Below, in pieces: positions 2,897 to 11,278 of a stretch of 64,000 nt of DNA. Within the stretch, counting starts at the first letter, position 1. Every line of letters begins with the position of its first letter. Location of the stretch: contig OY970178.1 in the NCBI GenBank assembly GCA_963707915.1, forward strand, positions 1,984,001 to 2,048,000, written 5' to 3'. The DNA comes from Candidatus Eiseniibacteriota bacterium (lineage in GTDB: Bacteria > Eisenbacteria > RBG-16-71-46). The notes beneath the pieces are model-generated. The model worked only from the letters and a program-made list of their open reading frames with translations, was not told where the DNA came from and searched no databases. Both the position numbers and the translations under genes were made by a program.

Positions 2897-3838
2897 TCAG
2901 AACTGCGCGGTGAACGCGACCCGGTGCGTGTCACCGAGGTCGAAACGCATCGGCACGAAGGCGTAGTCCACGCGCAGGCCGACCAGCGCGTAGCCGACCC
3001 CCAGGCTGTAGCTCGCGGCGTCGTCGTTCACGCGCAGCCCGCCGCGCAGGGTGGCGACGCCGGAACCGTTGGCCCCGCCGGCAGTGGCCACCTCCACCCC
3101 CATCATGCCGACGCCGTCGCGGCCGCGGGCGAAGCGGGCCTCGAGCGCGGTGCGCAGCGCGGCGCCGCGCGCCAGGCCGTGTTGCCAGGAGCCGCCCGCC
3201 TGCACCGCGACCGGCAGCGGCATGGCGGCGCCCGGACCGCCGTCGAGCGTGTAGCGCGCATCCCCGCCGAGATTGTGAGCGCTGAGCCCCAGGCGCACGC
3301 CGGGCAGCCGGGCCGGCACCCAGACCGCGCCGAACCCGGCCGCGTAGGCGGTCGCGGAGACCTCGGCCATCCGCTCGCGCAGGACCTGCACCGTGCCACC
3401 CACGCTCAGCCCGGGCGCGACGACGCGCCCGTGGCCCAGCGCGAACTCCAGGTCGTGGTAGCCGAAGGAGCCGCTCGCGGTCGGGTTCCCGTCCGCGTCG
3501 GTCGCGGCGATGGGCTCGGAGTAGAGCGCGCGCAAGGAGACCGCGGTGCCGCCGCCGAAGGAGCGGTTCGCGAGCGCGAACTGCTCGAGGCGCAGCGACT
3601 GCAGGTACTCGGTGTGCGTTCCCGTGAGCTGCACGCCCTTCACGCCCGCGAGCCCGGCCGGGTTCCAGAAGGCCGCCTCGACGCCCTGCGCGAGCGACGC
3701 GAACGCGCCACCGAGCGCGGCGGCCCGCGCCCCGCCCGGGATCTCCAGGAAGGCGAAGGCCGACGTGGCGCAGGTGGCGGGCCGCGCGCAGAGCAGGACG
3801 AGCGCGGCGCACGCGGCCGCGGCACGGAGTGGCTTCAT
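2897..3838 (-). CDS. PorV/PorQ family outer-membrane beta-barrel protein
   Basis: Signal peptide; FLEIPGGARAAALGGAF...AAFWNPAGLA; C-terminal VDYAF...DLGDTHRVAFTAQF ending in Phe. Start ATG 3838. Confidence 0.85.
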   Translation of the reverse strand: MKPLRAAAACAALVLLCARPATCATSAFAFLEIPGGARAAALGGAFASLAQGVEAAFWNPAGLAGVKGVQLTGTHTEYLQSLRLEQFALANRSFGGGTAVSLRALYSEPIAATDADGNPTASGSFGYHDLEFALGHGRVVAPGLSVGGTVQVLRERMAEVSATAYAAGFGAVWVPARLPGVRLGLSAHNLGGDARYTLDGGPGAAMPLPVAVQAGGSWQHGLARGAALRTALEARFARGRDGVGMMGVEVATAGGANGSGVATLRGGLRVNDDAASYSLGVGYALVGLRVDYAFVPMRFDLGDTHRVAFTAQF

Positions 3839-3963
3839 CAGATCCCCTTGGAGCAGGCGCCGGCCGGTCGCAGCCGCCACCACGAAGACGCGGGCGGGGC
3901 GGAGCCGGCTTTCCCGGCCCCGCTCCCTGCCCAGGCGAAGATGGAGTCTACCACGCGGATCGA

Positions 3964-5346
3964 TCAGCCCCGGCCGTGACGCTCCCCACCCTGGCCCCGC
4001 TCCGGGTTGTCCCGCGCGGGTGCCGGACGCGGGGCCGGGCTGCTCGGCGGCGGCGAGGGCCGCGACTCGTCACGCGGGCGATCGGCCTTGGGCGGCGGCG
4101 ACGAGGGACGCGCCCCCTCGCGCGGACGCTCGTACCGCGGCGACGGCGCCGACGGACGCGAGGTCTCGCGCGGCGAGCGGTAGACCGGCGCCGACCGCGT
4201 GTCGCGCGGGCGATCCACGCGCCCGCCCTCGTCAGGACCCGGGCGCCCCGCGGGCCCCCAGGTCGATCCCTGCCGGCCACCCGGGCCCGGCCGCGTGCCC
4301 TCCTGCAGCCGCCTGCCTTCCACCGGCTCCCGCACGCCCGGTCGGTTGGACCCGATCGGCACGCGCACGCCCGCGCCGATCCCGCCCCGGCCGTTGCCGC
4401 CACCGAGGAAGCCCGGCGGCAGCGGCTTGCCTTCCTTCCAGCGCGAGCCGTCGTAACGGCTCGGCGGGGCGTAGCCCGCAGGCGGCGCCGTCTTGCGGCG
4501 CGTGAGATGGCCGCTCCAGAGCGCGTTCCACTGCCGCCGGCCGTTCCAGGACGAGTAGTAGGGCCGGTCGTACGGGGCGCACGGGTAGCAGCGCGGCACG
4601 TAGCAGAAGTAGGGCACCGTGCCGAACCAGTAGCGCGGCCCCCAGCTCCAGCCCCAGTAGACGCGGAAGTCGAAAGCCGAACAACTCGTGTAGTAGGGGT
4701 CGTAGCCATCCCACCACGCCCACTGGTTGGGACGGTGGCAGTCGTTGCAGAGGTAGCGCGGGTAGCGCACGGCCTGGTGGATGTAGTACGAGCTGTAGGC
4801 GGTGGCGAAGAGCTCGGGGTCGTTGGCGTCGCTCAGCACCTGCCGGCGGATGCGCTCCATCGCCACGAACGGGTCGCCCATGATGCGACCGTCCGAGGTC
4901 ACGTCCTGGTCGTCGTCCTCCTCCCCCACGTAGCCGGCACCCTCGGCCTGGGGATCGTAGGGACGCAGGTAGCGGGGCAGGGCGTTGAAGGGCTCGCGGG
5001 AGAGGAGGGCGACGATGTAGCCCTGCCCCACGGGGCCCTGCACGACGAGCTGCAGACCCGACTGGGCGGGCGGCACCCGGTAGGTCTGCCGGCCCTCGAC
5101 GAAGCCGCTGCGGCCCTCGTAGGGATACAGCACGCGCACGTAGCCTTCCGAGTCGATGTCGTAGACCAGGAGGTAGCCGTCATCCGAGGCGCGCACCTTG
5201 ATCTGGATCGGTTCGCCGGGCTCGTACACCGCGTCCTTGCCCCGGTCGGTCCAGATGTCCAGGCCCATCGCCCGGGCCCCAGCCGGGGACGGCGAGAGGA
5301 CGAGTCCGATCGCGAGGACGCCCAGAAGCCACCGCATTCGCAACAT
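3964..5346 (-). CDS. Secreted DUF4384-domain protein with a CxxCH motif, a Tyr/Trp-rich segment and an Arg/Pro/Gly-rich tail
   Basis: Signal peptide; VYEPGEPIQIKVRASDDGYLLVYDIDSEGYVRVLYP is DUF4384-like; YLCNDCH; low-complexity C-terminus; GGAGGAG RBS upstream (start 5346 or GTG 5352). Confidence 0.8.
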   Translation of the reverse strand: MLRMRWLLGVLAIGLVLSPSPAGARAMGLDIWTDRGKDAVYEPGEPIQIKVRASDDGYLLVYDIDSEGYVRVLYPYEGRSGFVEGRQTYRVPPAQSGLQLVVQGPVGQGYIVALLSREPFNALPRYLRPYDPQAEGAGYVGEEDDDQDVTSDGRIMGDPFVAMERIRRQVLSDANDPELFATAYSSYYIHQAVRYPRYLCNDCHRPNQWAWWDGYDPYYTSCSAFDFRVYWGWSWGPRYWFGTVPYFCYVPRCYPCAPYDRPYYSSWNGRRQWNALWSGHLTRRKTAPPAGYAPPSRYDGSRWKEGKPLPPGFLGGGNGRGGIGAGVRVPIGSNRPGVREPVEGRRLQEGTRPGPGGRQGSTWGPAGRPGPDEGGRVDRPRDTRSAPVYRSPRETSRPSAPSPRYERPREGARPSSPPPKADRPRDESRPSPPPSSPAPRPAPARDNPERGQGGERHGRG

Positions 5347-5348
5347 GG

Positions 5349-5894
5349 TCACGCTCCTCCTGGAGGTCCGGGCCGTGGTCCGCCGGCCGGCCGCGAGTCC
5401 CGCGGCTGCTCGGCCGGAAGACGCTCCCGGTCCCTCTCGTCATGCCCGTTGTTCTTCCTGTTACCCGGCGTGCGCCGGGTCTTCTCCCGGACCTTCACGT
5501 CGCCGGGCCCCGAGGCCTTCCCGGGGGCCGTCCCGGCCCGCCACGAATCGTAGTCGCGCGGCTCGCGGTATCGCTTCTGGTCCCGGTACGCAGCCGGATA
5601 GCGGTATCGGCCGAACGAGGGGTTCTGTTGCTTGATCCGCACGTACTGTTCGCGGTAGACGCGGACGGTCTCCGGGTGACGATCCCACGCGTAACGGAAT
5701 CCGTGGCCCGCGCACCAGTCGTAGTAGGGATCGAGGTAGCGGTACCCGTGACAATCATAGCAGTAGTAGCTCGGCGACGGGCGTCCGGAAGGGGCGTATG
5801 ACCCCGCCAGCGGGTGGCGGGTCCCGACCCAGGCCGCACAGCCCGGGATCACGGCGAGCACGACGGCCGCGCAGGCGATCTGCGTCCAGCGCAC
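5349..5894 (-). CDS. Putative lipoprotein with a CxxCH motif
   Basis: Lipobox-like VIPG/C after a hydrophobic stretch; YYCYDCHGY; Tyr-rich; abuts the downstream gene. Confidence 0.7.
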   Translation of the reverse strand: MRWTQIACAAVVLAVIPGCAAWVGTRHPLAGSYAPSGRPSPSYYCYDCHGYRYLDPYYDWCAGHGFRYAWDRHPETVRVYREQYVRIKQQNPSFGRYRYPAAYRDQKRYREPRDYDSWRAGTAPGKASGPGDVKVREKTRRTPGNRKNNGHDERDRERLPAEQPRDSRPAGGPRPGPPGGA

Positions 5895-5916
5895 CAGAAC
5901 CCCCTTCCTGCCCGGT

Positions 5917-6774
5917 CTACCGGCGCAGCCAGACGATGGGCCGCCGCGGCGCGCCGCCCTCTTCGCCCGCCGGCTTCGCCTTCAGCTCGCGATTGCCCGC
6001 GTCGATCTGGTAGGCCCAGTCGAGGGTCACCTGGGTCGGGCCCACGGCGGTGATGCGGAACTTGGCGAAGTGGTTGTCACGGGTCCAGACCACGTAAGCG
6101 TGCCCAACGATGGCCTCGACCGTCCCGCTCGGCGACCAGCCCGATTCGGCATCCGGGGCGAAGTCCACGGCGTCGAGCGAGGAGACGTAGCCCGCGTCCT
6201 GGATGTCGGTGGACGTGCCGGACGCAAAGACCTGCTGGTAGGCGTACCCCAGCGAGTCCACCCAGTAGCCGAAGAAGATGTCGGCCGGCGCGTCGATGGT
6301 GTTGGTGCGCGCGAAGGCCGAGAAGTCGTAGCCGATGTTCGTCTCGTAGACGAGGAAGTTGTTGAGCACCAAGCCGGCGCCCGCAGGCCGGGGCGTGTCG
6401 AAGACATCGTCGTAGGACAGGTCGCTCTCCGCCCCCGCCCGGTTCACCGCGGCGACCGCGAAGAAGCGGGTGGCGCCGTTCGCGAGGCCGGTGACCACGT
6501 ACTCGACGTACTGGGCCCCCGCCGGGGCCGGGATGGCCGCGATCCGCGTGTACTCGCAGCCCGTCCCCCCGCAGGGCCCCTCGTAGATGCGGTAGCTGAC
6601 GACGTCGGGCTCGGTGTTCGCCAGCCAGACCAGCGTGACCTGGCCGTCCCCGGTGACGCTGAACAATCCCCGCGGCGCGGCGGGCGGGACGATGGGCGCG
6701 GTGGATTCCTCCCGGCAGCCGGCAAGCAGGACGCCGAGCAGCATGAGTGGCAGGAGCAGCCTGTTCATCGTCAT
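5917..6774 (-). CDS. Lipoprotein with a fibronectin type III domain and an HmuY-like C-terminal region
   Basis: LLAG/C lipobox; PAAPRGL...GDGQVTLVW...YRIY...GLANG..FAVAAVN..G.ES (FN3); YVVWTRDNHFAKFRI...VTLDWAYQ; GGAGGG RBS. Confidence 0.8.
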   Translation of the reverse strand: MTMNRLLLPLMLLGVLLAGCREESTAPIVPPAAPRGLFSVTGDGQVTLVWLANTEPDVVSYRIYEGPCGGTGCEYTRIAAIPAPAGAQYVEYVVTGLANGATRFFAVAAVNRAGAESDLSYDDVFDTPRPAGAGLVLNNFLVYETNIGYDFSAFARTNTIDAPADIFFGYWVDSLGYAYQQVFASGTSTDIQDAGYVSSLDAVDFAPDAESGWSPSGTVEAIVGHAYVVWTRDNHFAKFRITAVGPTQVTLDWAYQIDAGNRELKAKPAGEEGGAPRRPIVWLRR

Positions 6775-6826
6775 CCCTCCCGGTCGGGTGTGGTCACGGC
6801 GGGTCTGGTCGCCTGCATCATACTTG

Positions 6827-6841
6827 GCAACCGTCGTGCCA
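6827..6841 (-). promoter_or_regulatory. Sigma54 -24/-12 promoter for the lipoprotein/DUF4384 operon
   Basis: Minus strand reads TGGCAC-GACGG-TTGC, an exact match to TGGCAC-N5-TTGC, about 50 nt upstream of ATG 6774. An IHF-like CAAGGGGTTG lies just upstream (~6878-6888). Confidence 0.85.
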
Positions 6842-7094
6842 TGCCACAGAGCCCGCTAGCGCCGGCGGGGCAGCGTCGCAACCCCTTGCGGATCAAAGCG
6901 GGAAACGCACGGAGTCGCCCCGGCGGAAGGCCCGCGGGGCGACTCGATCGTGCGGCCGGGACGCAGGTGTGAGCGCTGCGCCACACGTGCCTCTAGGAGC
7001 GACAGGACACCGGCCAGTTCCGGACGCAGTCGACTGCGACATCCCCCAATGTCCGCCAACTACGTCCTGGGCCGGTGCCCTGAAACCCTGAGCG

Positions 7095-7325
7095 GGCCGG
7101 TTCTGCGCGCTGAGATGCGAAGACCGGGTGTGCCTGGCTGCTCGGCGTTGTCGCCGGCTCGCTTCGGGTGAATCGCTCGTTATCCAAGCTAGGCGGGTGC
7201 AGGAGGCGGTGCGTTGTCTAGTGACTGGGGCTCGTACCCTCGACCGGGTCCCCCGCATTGCCGCCTAGCCCAGATTCTCATCCGGTGGTGCCACCGGACT
7301 TGATTGGAGGTCCCCCCCTCCGCTG
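7095..7325 (-). ncRNA. Candidate structured small RNA of unknown family
   Basis: Follows a sigma54-like promoter. A 15-bp stem (7261-7275 with 7182-7196) and an inner 8-bp stem pair fully only on the minus strand via G-U wobbles; extra hairpins at 7306-7321 and 7281-7298. No convincing ORF. Ends are approximate. Confidence 0.55.
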
Positions 7326-7336
7326 GGCAGCGAATA

Positions 7337-7351
7337 GCACGCGTCATGCCA
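7337..7351 (-). promoter_or_regulatory. Sigma54-like promoter upstream of the candidate sRNA
   Basis: Minus strand TGGCAT-GACGC-GTGC(T): GG and GC at the correct -24/-12 spacing. Confidence 0.6.
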
Positions 7352-7648
7352 TCGATTCGTCAAGCCGCGCCTATTCTCTCAACGCGTTGCACCGCAACTG
7401 AATGCGTTATGCGCCACGGCCACCGACCGACCCCGGCGACGGCCCGGAACAGGCGAAATCTATCAAGAACTTTGATGGTTCTGCGGACCATGGCCTAACC
7501 ACATGGAACGCATGGTCTTCGATGCAAAGACAATTGATAGGGCGATTGGCAACGGAAGTGCGAGTCGGAGCTCTGGCGGGACACCGGCGTGGAACGCCGG
7601 AGCGGGACCCCGGGGGGCCGGGCCGGCCCGCCGCGGGGAGGACGCGGA

Positions 7649-10600
7649 CTACGAGCGGCGGCGCTCGAGCTCGAGGGTGCGGATCCGGGAGAGCAGCGTC
7701 GGGTAGCTCAGGCCGAGCTCGCGCGCCACTTTCGCCTTGTTCCAGCGATGCCGGTCGAGCGCTTCGGAGATCACCCGGCGCTCCAGCTCCGAGACGCTCG
7801 AGCGCAGGCTCTGGCCCGCCTCGCCCGGACCCTCCCCCGGCGCCGCGGACCGCGTGGCGGGCTCGCGCATCTCGGGCGGCAGCAGTTCGATCCCGAGCTG
7901 GTCGCCCTGGTCGGCGAGCACCACCATCCGCTTCACCGTCTTGTCCAGCTCGCGCACGTTGCCGCGCCACTGGTGGGAGAGGAACAGCTGCATCACCTCG
8001 GGGCTGAATCCGCGCAGGTCCTTCTCCATCTGGCGCGAGTACACGCCGAGGAAGTGCTGCGACAGCACCGGGATGTCCTCGCGCCGCTCGCGCAGCGCGG
8101 GCACCCGCACGGTGATGTCGTTGAGGCGGTAGTAGAGGTCCTCGAGGAAGCGGCCCTCGCGGATGCGCTCGCGCAGGTCCGTGCCGGTGGCGCAGATCAC
8201 GCGCGCGTCCACCCGCTTGCTGCGCGTGGCGCCGACCGGGCGGATCTCGCTGCGGTCCAGCACGTGCAGCAGCTTCGCCTGCACCGACTCGGGGACCTTC
8301 TCGATCTCGTCGAGGAAGATGGTCCCGCCCTCGGCCTCCTCGAAGAGACCCTGCTTGTCGCGCACCGCCCCGGTGAAGGCGCCGTGCACGTAGCCGAACA
8401 ACTCGCTCTCGAGCAGCGACTCGGGCAGCGCGGCGCAGTTCACCTGCACGAACGGCCGGTCGCGGCGGTTCGACGATTCGTGCACGACCTGGGCCAGCAG
8501 GCCCTTGCCCGTGCCGGTCTCCCCCATGAAGAGGACGGTGGCCGAACTGTCGCCGACCTTCGAGAGCAGGGCGAGCAGGCCCTTCATCTCGCGCGAGGCG
8601 GTGACCACGCGCTCCATGCCGGCGCTCGGCTTCAGCTTGTCGCGCAGCTCGCGGTTCTCGACCAGCAGGAGCGAGCGCTGCGCCTCGACGATCGCCACCG
8701 CCGCGCTGTTCGCCAGCACCGCGAGCAGGTTCACATCGCGCTGCTTGAACGGCCCGAGCAGGTTGTCGTTGAGCCGGTCGACGAACACCAGGCCCACCGC
8801 CTGCGAGGGGAAGTTGAGCGGCACGCAGACCAGCGAGGCGACGCTCTCGAGCGCGTCGGCCACCGCCGCGCCGAAGCGTGGATCGGCGGCCACCCGGCTG
8901 GAGAACACCGGGCCGCTCTCGGCCAGGCGCGGTCCCACCGCCTCCTCCAGCGCGCGCAGGATCCGCCGCGCGCGGTCCCGTCCCAGCCCGTGTTGCGCGA
9001 CCACGTCGAGCCTCATGCCCCCGCTCGAGAACGCCACGAAGCCGCGGTCCCCGCCGGCGTTCTCCACGGCGAGCTTGACGGTCTGGGCGAGCAGACCGTT
9101 CATGTCCGAGGTCTCGCGGAACAGGCGGTTCGCGTCCTCCAGCGCGCGGAACTCGTTGCTGGTGGACAGCGAGACGGCGACGTACTGGCGCTCGATCTCG
9201 CGCCGCAGCGCCTCGGCGCGCCCGCCCGCAGGCGAGCCGGCCTCCAGCAGCCAGAGCTCGGCCTGTTCGAGCAGGCCCAGCGCCTGGTCGTAGTGCTCGC
9301 GCTCGGTCTCGAGGCGCGCGAGGGTGAGCAGCGACTCGGAGGCCAGCGACACGACACCGAGCTGGCGGAACAGCGTGGCCGCACGCTTGGCCGCGTCGGC
9401 GACCGGTTCGAGCGGCAGCCGCAGCCGGACGCTGGCCGGCAGCAGCAGCAGGAACTCGCCCCACCCGGCCAGCGTGGCGGCCAGCTCGTAGGTCTCGCCC
9501 AGGTCCTCGAAGGCCTGGGCCGCGCCGAGGAGCTTGACCTGCATGCCGGGCGCGGCCCCGCGCACCGCGTCGAGCTGGGCGAGGGCGCGGTCGGCGATGG
9601 CGGCCTCGATGCTGTCGCCCAGCTGCGCGGCCAGCGCGGCGCCCCGCGCCAGGTGCGCCTGCGCCTCGGACGCCCGTCCGGCCGCGAGCAGCGCGAGCCC
9701 CGTGCGGGTCTCGAGCTCCGCGACCAAGTCGCCGTGCGGCGCGGCGCGGCGCGCCTCGTCGAGCGCGGGCTCGAGCAGCGCGAGCGCCGCCATGGCGTCG
9801 CCGCGGTCCAGCGCCAGCTCCCCGAGGAACTCGCGCGCCAGCGTCGCCTCGCGCAGCGCTCCCACCGACCCCGCCAGCTCGAGCGCGCGCCGGAAGTTCT
9901 CCTCGGCGCTCTCCAGCTGCCGCCGCCGCCGCGCGAGCAGGCCGGTCGCCAGCAGCGCCGCGGCCTCGCCCTGCACGTGGCCGGTCTCGCGCGAGATCCT
10001 CAGCGACTGGCGGAAGTTCTCCTCGGCCAGGTCCCACTGCCCCAGCCGGTAGCGGATCAGGCCCAGGTTCTGGTGGTGCCCGCGCATGCGGGAATACAGG
10101 CCCGCCCGCTCGTCGAGGCGCAGCGCCTGCTCCAGGAAGCGCGTGGCCTCGCGCCACTCGCGCAGGTTCTTGTAGACCAGTCCGAGATTGTTGAGGGCGG
10201 TGACCAGCCCGTCGGTGTCGTCGATGCGGCGGAACGTGGCGGCGGCGTTCTGCAGCCAATCGATGGCCTCGGCGGAGCGGCCCTGTCGCGTCGCGCACAG
10301 CCCGAGCGTCGCCGTGACCTGGCCGACCGTGCGGTGCTCGTCGGTATCGCGCAGGACAGCATAGGCGTAGTGCGCGTAGCGGCGGCTGCGGCGGTACTGC
10401 CCCTGCTGGATGAGCGCCGCGGCGTAGTGGGCGGCGATGTTCGCCGCCTGCCGGGGGTCGCCGAGCAGGCGGGCCGCGGCGCGCGCCTCGCGCAGGGCGG
10501 CGACGGCGGACTCGTAGTCACCGCGCGCCGTGTGGGTCTCGGCCACCCGCAGGAGGATGCGGACGCGCTCCACCGGGGCGTCGGGACCGACCGCGCTCAG

Positions 10601-10738
10601 GGCGGCGCGATACTCCTCGAGCGCTTCCGAGAAGTTGTCAGCCGCCAGATGCAGATCGCCGATCGCTTCGTGACGGCCGGCGCCGGTACGAGCGGCGTCC
10701 GCTGCGCGAGCCAGATCGGGGGGGATCTCTCTCTGCAC
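7649..10738 (-). CDS. Sigma54-dependent enhancer-binding protein: long N-terminal TPR array + GAF + AAA+ + Fis-type HTH
   Basis: TPR repeats (ALNNLGLVYKNLREWREATRFLEQAL; HQNLGLIRYRLGQWDLAEENFRQSL); GAF-like VCVPLNF..VGLVFVD; GETGTGK, ESELFGYVHGAFTGA, FLDEI, WRGNVREL; HTH WNKAKVARELGLS. Confidence 0.93.
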   Translation of the reverse strand: MQREIPPDLARAADAARTGAGRHEAIGDLHLAADNFSEALEEYRAALSAVGPDAPVERVRILLRVAETHTARGDYESAVAALREARAAARLLGDPRQAANIAAHYAAALIQQGQYRRSRRYAHYAYAVLRDTDEHRTVGQVTATLGLCATRQGRSAEAIDWLQNAAATFRRIDDTDGLVTALNNLGLVYKNLREWREATRFLEQALRLDERAGLYSRMRGHHQNLGLIRYRLGQWDLAEENFRQSLRISRETGHVQGEAAALLATGLLARRRRQLESAEENFRRALELAGSVGALREATLAREFLGELALDRGDAMAALALLEPALDEARRAAPHGDLVAELETRTGLALLAAGRASEAQAHLARGAALAAQLGDSIEAAIADRALAQLDAVRGAAPGMQVKLLGAAQAFEDLGETYELAATLAGWGEFLLLLPASVRLRLPLEPVADAAKRAATLFRQLGVVSLASESLLTLARLETEREHYDQALGLLEQAELWLLEAGSPAGGRAEALRREIERQYVAVSLSTSNEFRALEDANRLFRETSDMNGLLAQTVKLAVENAGGDRGFVAFSSGGMRLDVVAQHGLGRDRARRILRALEEAVGPRLAESGPVFSSRVAADPRFGAAVADALESVASLVCVPLNFPSQAVGLVFVDRLNDNLLGPFKQRDVNLLAVLANSAAVAIVEAQRSLLLVENRELRDKLKPSAGMERVVTASREMKGLLALLSKVGDSSATVLFMGETGTGKGLLAQVVHESSNRRDRPFVQVNCAALPESLLESELFGYVHGAFTGAVRDKQGLFEEAEGGTIFLDEIEKVPESVQAKLLHVLDRSEIRPVGATRSKRVDARVICATGTDLRERIREGRFLEDLYYRLNDITVRVPALRERREDIPVLSQHFLGVYSRQMEKDLRGFSPEVMQLFLSHQWRGNVRELDKTVKRMVVLADQGDQLGIELLPPEMREPATRSAAPGEGPGEAGQSLRSSVSELERRVISEALDRHRWNKAKVARELGLSYPTLLSRIRTLELERRRS

Positions 10739-10844
10739 TTTCGAACCCTCGAGTCACATCACCCGGTTGGACATCCCGGTGGTTCGACTCCGGGAGGCCT
10801 TTGGTGCCGCGAAGCGCTTTGGAAGTCCGTTCGATCCGTCGGGA

Positions 10845-11162
10845 CTACCTCGCTCCGAGATATCGATTGGCCCACATCCTGAAGATCCAGCGCAGCCACG
10901 GGTCGGTGGCAGGGCCCCCGGTATGAGCACCCTTCCCACGCGGGACCGGCGACATCGAGCCCTGCGCGAGCGGATGCGGGGTCTGACCGACATCGGGCTC
11001 CCCGGAAGTCGGAGCAGCCGGCGGCTTCGACACGCTCGCGAGCGACGAGGCGGCGGACGGTGTGGCCGCCCTCCCGTCCGCGAACGCGGTCGACCAGCCT
11101 GCCGCGGCGACCACCGAGAGCAGGACCAGCAGGAGCAGGAGTCTGTTGCGATCGGAAATCAT
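10845..11162 (-). CDS. Small secreted protein / putative signalling propeptide (105 aa)
   Basis: GGAGGGAG RBS before ATG 11162; Sec signal peptide (RNRLLLLLVLLSVVAAAGWSTAFA); disordered Pro/Ser body with SGEPDVG; Trp/Arg-rich C-terminal helix. Confidence 0.7.
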   Translation of the reverse strand: MISDRNRLLLLLVLLSVVAAAGWSTAFADGRAATPSAASSLASVSKPPAAPTSGEPDVGQTPHPLAQGSMSPVPRGKGAHTGGPATDPWLRWIFRMWANRYLGAR

Positions 11163-11278
11163 GCGCTTCCGCTCCCTCCAAAGCTGGCGACTGTGACGCA
11201 TACAGCGACAGAACCGACCGGGGCTGGAGCCGCCCCGGACGAACCCGAGAACCTGGGGGACCTCTTTGCGCCGGGGTA

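Follow-up and report, generated by a model that had tools for sequence, protein, structure and literature searches.

A predicted sigma54-type RNA family beside a TPR-GAF activator gene in Eisenbacteria, and its candidate RNA partners

In the 64,000-nucleotide stretch of a Candidatus Eiseniibacteriota genome analysed here (the window), an ORF-free gap at 6769-7648 separates the gene of an enhancer-binding protein from a downstream operon, and the question raised by this locus is whether the structured sequence in the gap is an RNA gene of its own and, if so, with which molecules its product would interact. A sequence-only reading had proposed an unannotated, sigma54-driven RNA on the minus strand of a gap of lower GC content; the gap is indeed free of ORFs, the dip in GC being mild (0.60-0.67 versus 0.69-0.77 nearby). 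In the following, the window RNA is referred to as RNA-A, the adjoining TPR-GAF enhancer-binding protein as activator A, and its paralog, which adjoins a second RNA (RNA-B), as activator B; G000 is the source genome, f1 its family and f3 the sister family, and the distribution counts refer to the Eisenbacteria phylum (206 genomes), a class set (121 genomes) and metagenome matches. RNA-A is very probably a real, uncatalogued and phylum-wide RNA gene, transcribed as described below.

The features from which the RNA had been proposed are all present on the minus strand: TGGCAT-N5-GTGC at 7351-7337, the GGAGG/CCUCC hairpin at 7306-7321, the 15/15 helix of 7261-7275 with 7182-7196 (three G-U pairs), the 8/8 helix (two G-U pairs), and the GGG/CCC and GUC/GAC caps. 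The hairpin at 7281-7298 is also there, and is taken as seven pairs with a 4-nt loop, as in the computed fold, because eight pairs would leave a 2-nt loop. The -24/-12 consensus of sigma54 promoters is well established, and the putative RNA-A promoter (7337..7351, minus strand) has GG at -24 and GC at -12, giving a predicted start at about 7325-7324. It is matched in 52 of 53 distinct loci, with columns that are 98-100% conserved, and its distance to the 5' hairpin is fixed among the family loci. No conserved hexamer indicating a shared enhancer is found upstream of it (best, 13/50). A perfect small inverted repeat at 7386-7398, upstream of the promoter, is partly kept within the genus only.

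When considering the 236-nt stretch, the minus strand folds with z = -3.80 (0/200 shuffles equally stable) and the plus strand with z = -1.14 (31/200), which, like the one-sided G-U changes of the long helix (see below), bears out the proposal of a minus-strand RNA. The 3' boundary proposed at 7095 cuts this RNA, as a second conserved domain lies beyond it, at 7080-7005; the sequence-only reading saw the 5' two-thirds of the molecule, and missed the 3' domain, the second G-rich loop and both candidate partners. RNA-A is predicted to be a non-coding RNA extending from about 7324 to 6998 (minus strand), as judged from the fold, the length and the frame test; its length is ~327 nt in the window and 267-470 nt across the family, and the ~331-nt form has a fold z of -6.17, with 0/100 shuffles being as stable.

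The alignment of the 53 distinct loci shows four conserved blocks, these being the promoter, the 5' hairpin, the rod and the 3' block (7080-7005), and the elements of the RNA are, from 5' to 3', a G-rich hairpin, a rod whose tip loop is UACGAG, a variable linker, a stem bearing a GGGGGA loop and a U-rich end. The 5' hairpin, GGAGG-(G-run, A)-CCUCC (7306..7321, minus strand), is found in 53/53 family loci and is the part that is conserved phylum-wide. It is followed by the P2 hairpin seen in the fold (7281..7298, minus strand), which varies in sequence and length, and by the rod (7182..7275, minus strand), defined by model R1 and by pair counts, with its 15-bp helix, its middle helix and a junction carrying the two caps. 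The rod tip, GGG-UACGAG-CCC (7228..7239, minus strand), is invariant in 47 of 50 sequences and has one extra U in the other three. Beyond the linker (7180-7095) lies a long 3' stem with internal loops (7005..7080, minus strand), supported by covariation and followed in most homologs by a terminator-like, U-rich tail. This stem carries the second G-rich loop, ACA-YU-GGGGGA-UGU (7039..7052, minus strand), of which GGGGGAUG is present in 52/53 loci, the sole exception being a truncated locus. CCCGGUC recurs in RNA-A, at 7122-7129 and at the rod junction. The three loops are predicted to be exposed, with unpaired probabilities of 0.72 (loop 1), 0.66 (loop 2) and 0.96 (tip) versus 0.32 overall.

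For the 3' domain, the structure-blind MAFFT alignment of 50 sequences has 89.8% of cells paired, 17 of 26 pairs changing on both sides, and a covariation score of 0.320, compared with 0.174 +/- 0.009 for shuffled alignments and no more than 0.107 when the partners are slid. In the rod, 93.2% of the cells pair in the MAFFT alignment and 67 cells have two-sided changes versus 20 in shuffles; when counted by pairs, 7/32 have a two-sided change in that alignment, which is no excess over shuffles (239/500), and 12/31 after fitting to the model, an alignment that leans toward the model and includes one reverse-strand row. The long helix of the rod is largely invariant, with one-sided G-U changes compatible with the minus strand. 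Neither rod cap is proven by covariation, because GGG/CCC never varies and GUC/GAC, which is 75-84% paired, shows no compensatory change.

RNA-A encodes no protein, because the spacings between invariant anchors (20/18/12 and 21/17/12) fall in all three frames; the ORFs differ between homologs and no reading frame is conserved. An AUG inside loop 2 was rejected as a start codon, as it follows the G-run directly, without a spacer, and the resulting peptides are unrelated between homologs. An Rfam 15 scan of 6000-8000 (E up to 10) gave only a 13-nt chance match at E = 10, which is the inverted repeat at 7386-7398, and scanning 20 loci, including short distant members, at the gathering threshold gave 0 matches; the families covered include Pxr, CrcZ, Qrr, GlmY/Z, CsrB, 6C and riboswitches. 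RNA-A was dismissed as a 6S or SRP RNA, both of which are present elsewhere in G000 above cut-off, and a pattern search of viral contigs for phage carriage did not find it.

Activator A (7649..10738, minus strand; 1029 aa) has a TPR-GAF-AAA+(sigma54)-HTH architecture (Pfam TPR_12, GAF, Sigma54_activat, HTH_8). Upstream of it, the ORF list has a small protein (10845..11201, minus strand; probable start 11162) with a signal-peptide-like N-terminus and no Pfam match; the paralogous cassette has a 118-aa ORF at the corresponding position, and the small protein is a possible candidate for the input of activator A. On the other side, the downstream operon (2897..6768, minus strand; ORF list and Pfam) comprises two lipoprotein-like proteins (5917-6768 and 5349-5894), a DUF4384 protein (3964-5352) and a UPF0164 protein (2897-3883). 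RNA-A is on the same strand as both neighbours, and it could be envisaged that it is a cis element, either the leader or attenuator of this exported-protein operon or the processed 3' end of the activator mRNA. The tail in the window is only weakly U-rich, with no terminator or sigma70 promoter called at 6750-7700 in standard scans, and CrcZ also arises by processing of cbrB-crcZ read-through (PMC5113210). We nevertheless regard the cis reading as very unlikely. A second sigma54-type promoter for the operon is present in 47/50 loci (6827..6841, minus strand), the homolog tails have a mean of 5.0 U in the last 10 nt versus 1.8 expected, strong terminators follow the short versions of the RNA in f8, f11, f17 and f18, and complementarities in trans are found, as described below. 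Upstream of the second promoter lies a TGT-N12-ACA inverted repeat (6968..6985, minus strand; CACACC in 35/47 and CGGTGT in 32/47 upstream regions), a possible enhancer for this promoter as judged from its sequence.

The distribution agrees with an independent RNA gene that stays with its activator. BLAST searches with the gap give matches in 58/60 f1 genomes, and model R1, of the rod, finds one copy each in 59/59 f1 and 5/6 f3 genomes and no copy in the 85 other genomes searched. Of the 206 Eisenbacteria genomes, 170 contain the exact promoter-plus-hairpin pattern, essentially once each and behind the orthologous TPR-GAF activator (reversed control, 0). Full-length homologs of activator A are present in 117/121 class genomes, and its close relatives are mostly found in Candidatus Eisenbacteria records. 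Behind 36 distant activator orthologs, the 5' hairpin is, among the matches listed, exact in 26, altered in eight (f7, f8, f12, f13 and one f18) and missing in two (f14), and the second G-loop is seen in at least 11 of these 36 loci; the 5' hairpin is found behind none of four paralog loci. Among 120 metagenome matches, 61 have at least 600 nt upstream; 52 of these have the activator there, all with an intact -12 GC, and the other nine lack the -12 GC. Short versions of ~100-140 nt, with the 5' hairpin, one rod and a terminator, are found in f8, f11 and f17 (L149, L150, L155-L158, L169-L172), suggesting a minimal RNA without the second G-loop. In f14 (L162, L163), where the activator orthologs have no 5' hairpin behind them, a sigma54-type promoter is found ~650 nt downstream, followed by a sequence that is also rich in hairpins but different. 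Five records titled as other phyla (L043, L050, L052, L071, L101) carry activators that are 67-93% identical, three to four of them with RNA-A; these are probably mislabelled or mixed bins. Conservation, covariation, the fixed-distance promoter, the non-coding character and the empty Rfam scans together uphold the proposal of a new sigma54-type RNA family downstream of the activator.

A candidate target of the two G-rich loops lies in the activator A mRNA itself. It is a C-run at about codons 4-8 (10714..10727, minus strand), predicted to form the loop of a GAUC/GAUC hairpin, with loop positions unpaired with a probability of 0.79-0.91. Pro6 is encoded by CCC in 38/38 sequences and Pro7 never by CCG, the commonest proline codon of the activator A genes (650/1180), and only 4/323 four-fold columns are invariant, one of these being the start codon. 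UCCCCC is present in 42/42 f1 orthologs and the C-run in 5/5 f3 orthologs. Because the synonymous sites are frozen and the run is present throughout these two families, it appears to be under selection in f1 and f3. It is found in 10/36 distant orthologs (counted by eye), at shifting positions, three of them between SD and AUG, compared with 9/81 orthologs of three other genes and 76/2790 G000 genes. The RNA-A/activator duplexes are weak (net -4.2 and -1.2 kcal/mol after the opening costs), and, going by the folding model, conservation of the C-run could instead serve the hairpin within the mRNA itself. The 5' hairpin is intact in f10, f11, f15 and f16, whose activator has no C-run; by these sequence counts, it is more widespread than this target, and feedback on activator A is supported in f1 and f3, not phylum-wide.

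No other conserved mRNA target of RNA-A emerged from duplex ranking, ortholog counts or SD-pattern searches. In the ranking, which covered the 2790 called G000 genes, activator A is 18th, and the top-ranked site was discarded for lack of conservation and because the PorU-like gene concerned truly starts downstream of it. UCCCCC near the start is found in 3/22 orthologs of a sigma54-driven lipoprotein, 4/30 of lptC and 2/29 of rho, and just before starts it is rare in G000 (three genes). The SD-UCCCCC-AUG pattern gives, family-wide, several matches per genome above a reversed control that itself has no real SD-AUG context, and no gene is recurrent beyond close relatives among the ~150 matches listed. 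Sigma54-type promoters were also observed upstream of lptC in 30/30 family loci (L191, L365-L394) and upstream of a small lipoprotein gene in 21/22.

It could also be that the G-loops mainly act as a sponge of a C-rich sRNA, as in the RosA/RoxS system, the activator site being incidental. The candidate for such a partner, RNA-C, has a sigma54-type promoter (G000:C1 680899, plus strand) and a rod with an invariant 32-nt core (L459:2080-2260 = G000:C1 ~680980-681160), and is present in 78/88 family genomes; model R3 finds it in f2, f3, f11 and f13 with GCUGAUCCC kept. The core has AUCCCCC, resembling the activator site, in 29/30 f1 homologs, and sponging of C-rich by G-rich sequences has a precedent (PMC8216469). 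Against this, the match is one 7-mer, with 0.12 expected by chance, and the run is C3 in f2 and f3, C4 in f11 and C5 in f13, where RNA-A has no G-loops. RNA-C and RNA-A thus show no covariation across these four families, and an RNA-C sponge is considered quite unlikely as the main function. Among other RNAs, a 6C-like partner was rejected (best G000 match 25.7 bits, below the 47-bit cut-off), as were C-rich words near an sRNA at G000:3473817, which looked like a two-site match and proved to lie beyond its terminator and not to be conserved. A further sigma54-type sRNA, whose CCGAGGGGCC core is invariant and which has a terminator, was seen behind an NtrC-like gene (L458:2170-2295, minus strand; 37/88 family genomes by BLAST).

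The best-supported RNA partner of RNA-A is RNA-B, whose promoter (G000:C1 1910060, minus strand) lies behind the paralogous activator B, ~80 kb from RNA-A, and whose fold z is -3.55 (among nine candidate regions folded for pairing). A hairpin of RNA-B, GGG-CUCGUA-CCC, is the exact complement of the RNA-A tip, GGG-UACGAG-CCC, and the RNA-B-sense 12-mer is found only twice in 3.6 Mb outside the RNA-A locus, one copy being inside a coding gene. RNA-B was taken from 22 f1 genomes including G000, of which 20 were readable, leaving out G045 (contig end) and G048 (no activator-B match), and the tip-complementary site is present in 18 of these 20. Two genomes have a canonical RNA-A tip and no intact site, which is absent in G034 and in a mismatched form in G018. 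The three genomes with a UUACGAG tip, G015, G038 and G020, have CUCGUAA, CUCGUAA and CUCGUGG, respectively, in RNA-B, and in the cross matrix of tips and sites the cognate pairs score best. Because G015, G038 and G020 form one clade in a quick tree, the matched tip/site insertion is counted as a single event, accompanied by one wobble-compatible change. The f3 RNA-B has no site (0/4), and six f3 genomes have five different RNA-A tips between them. When only words conserved in each of the two RNA sets are compared, complementary 8-mers are expected 0.04 times and an 11-nt block is found; two control RNAs gave no 8-mer. The duplex is computed at -26.7 kcal/mol, or net -10.7 after opening both sites, with 0/1000 shuffles as good; whole-molecule cofolding, a method that cannot model kissing loops, gains only -1.5 kcal/mol. 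The conserved, covarying complementarity to another sRNA that characterizes a sponge is thus found with RNA-B, in f1 only and with one compensatory event.

The RNA-B match might instead reflect a shared DNA- or protein-binding palindrome, or chance, RNA-A being a real RNA whose function is in a ligand- or protein-binding rod. Only six bases of the 12-mer are asymmetric, because its ends are GGG/CCC; there is one compensatory event, and the 12-mer has one further copy, within a coding gene. However, the tip and the site are opposite in orientation relative to the two promoters, the insertion is matched in both RNAs, the change in G020 is wobble-compatible, and tip and site are lost jointly in the sister family f3. 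A fortuitous or palindromic origin of the match is hardly probable.

RNA-B itself is ~340-510 nt long (L460:2170-2540, minus strand; L521, L526-L535, L554-L562, L567) and has conserved motifs of its own, namely a 5' GGAUACGG, a loop with the anti-SD GCACCUCC and, preceding CCCGGUC, an A-rich stretch; in many genomes it has a GGGG(G)A hairpin loop like that of RNA-A, and model R2 (14 loci) detects no homology to the RNA-A 3' domain. The similarity of activator B in G000 (L460:2672-5275) is lost after about residue 681; the gene seems frameshifted, possibly through an error in sequencing or because the gene is broken. The ribosome-binding region of activator A, GAGGGUUCGA (10741..10750, minus strand), resembles the RNA-A tip and is partly complementary to the RNA-B site. 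GAGGGTTCG / GAGGGUUCG is present in 33/42 f1 activator A leaders; the nine exceptions include G015, G038 and G020, and two others have GGGUAC, which pairs without mismatch to the RNA-B site. The pairing between RNA-B and the leader extends over no more than 4-8 bp, which overlap an ordinary SD.

It is also conceivable that RNA-A titrates a protein, in the manner of CrcZ, CsrB or GlmY, with GGA-ending loops binding CsrA or another protein and the complementarities being secondary. Loop 2 has the ACA...GGA-UGU frame, with extra loop bases, of the CsrA SELEX consensus RUACARGGAUGU (PMC7652899), the conservation of the rod junction resembles that of a protein site, and CsrA is present in G000 and in 101/121 class genomes. 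In f13, which has no CsrA, the 5' hairpin is degenerate and there is no second loop. CsrA was likewise not found in f4, f6 and f10, yet the 5' hairpin is kept in 8/8 f10 genomes (CsrA, 0/8) and both loops in the single f4 and f6 genomes; the ACA of the second loop is lost in f4-f7, where the G-run stays. RNA-A has only two loop GGAs, compared with the many GGAs and strict co-occurrence with CsrA expected of a CsrA sponge. There are 0 Hfq matches in G000 (94.8% complete, single contig), and protein titration leaves the RNA-B match unexplained; the protein-titrating reading is considered unlikely. The csrA gene heads a gene run (G000:C1:1178500-1186400) which, labelled by inspection of the sequences, encodes FlgM-like, sensor, sigma54 regulator, FlhG-like and FliA-like proteins.

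The preferred reading is that RNA-A is a base-pairing regulator acting through its exposed loops and linking two sigma54 cassettes, which we hold to be somewhat probable in the form proposed here. Activator A and sigma54 would transcribe RNA-A from about 7324 to the U-rich end at about 6998, separately from the downstream operon with its own promoter. The two GGGGGA loops would bind UCCCCC sites, the f1 target being the C-loop at codons 5-7 of the activator A mRNA, and this pairing would most likely damp translation of activator A, a negative feedback like that of Qrr on luxO. The UACGAG tip would kiss the CUCGUA loop of RNA-B and extend to a 12-15 bp duplex, so that the two RNAs would titrate one another. 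As the tip is similar to the ribosome-binding region, with which RNA-B can also pair weakly, RNA-A may serve as a decoy keeping RNA-B away from activator A, which would give cross-inhibition between the two cassettes; the sign of each of these effects is inferred. The complete scheme, in which RNA-B blocks the ribosome-binding region, the RNA-A tip mimics this region and captures RNA-B, and the G-loops feed back, forming an Hfq-independent toggle at the RNA level, is put forward tentatively, as possible rather than probable.

The locus provides an uncatalogued, phylum-wide RNA family of an uncultured lineage, with concrete candidate partners. Should RNA-A and RNA-B truly pair, the long sRNAs of two paralogous sigma54 modules, encoded in trans, would titrate each other via complementary hairpin loops, which would be a route for cross-talk between paralogous signalling systems that we did not find described in the literature searched; the natural 6-nt and 7-nt loop alleles are ready specificity controls. 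Searches of the Eisenbacteria RNA literature and with motif strings gave no description of the family among the matches listed; motif catalogues in supplements or subscription journals could hold it.

The layout of the locus, with its fixed-distance -24 GG/-12 GC promoter and conserved linkage to an enhancer-binding protein, is that of the CrcZ, Pxr and Qrr systems. CrcZ of Pseudomonas is a long sRNA with a sigma54 promoter directly downstream of the activator gene cbrB (PMC5113210), and RNA-A is likewise long and directly downstream of its activator gene, with a sigma54-type promoter; unlike CrcZ, which titrates Hfq/Crc via A-rich motifs (PMC5113210), it has G-rich loops and no Rfam match. 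Pxr of Myxococcus, the analogy drawn in the sequence-only reading, is a 108-nt sigma54 sRNA of three stem-loops downstream of nla19 (PMC5568312), in a host for which 10.1101/2025.09.11.675593 reports no Hfq. The analogy holds for the layout, RNA-A lying behind a sigma54 regulator gene in a genome that has no Hfq match, but not for the molecule, which is three times longer and matches neither the Rfam Pxr model nor any other, and whose activator is a TPR-GAF protein, Nla19 being a response regulator. The Qrr sRNAs of Vibrio are short, Hfq-dependent and redundant, and pair at the translation start of their own activator gene, luxO (PMC2632942). The sigma54-type RNA-A is also predicted to pair at its own activator's translation start, but is single, large and multi-domain, has its site within codons 5-7, and is also predicted to have a partner RNA, encoded in a paralogous cassette. 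RosA of Bacillus subtilis is a sigma-A driven sponge of RoxS and FsrA, which uses G-rich single strands on C-rich regions without Hfq (PMC8216469). The G-rich loops facing a C-rich RNA, and an sRNA-sRNA titration without Hfq, are similarly predicted for RNA-A, whose best-supported RNA partner, unlike those of RosA, pairs via the UACGAG loop and not via G-runs. In the plasmid antisense pairs RNAI/RNAII and CopA/CopT, encoded in cis on opposite strands, complementary loops kiss and extend to a duplex. The complementary hairpin loops of RNA-A and RNA-B are predicted to do the same, from genes ~80 kb apart and with a complementarity of 12-15 nt only. RNA-A is a member of none of the CrcZ, Pxr, Qrr and RosA families; the layout of a sigma54 sRNA beside its activator gene is already known, and what is new here is the match of the RNA-A tip to RNA-B.
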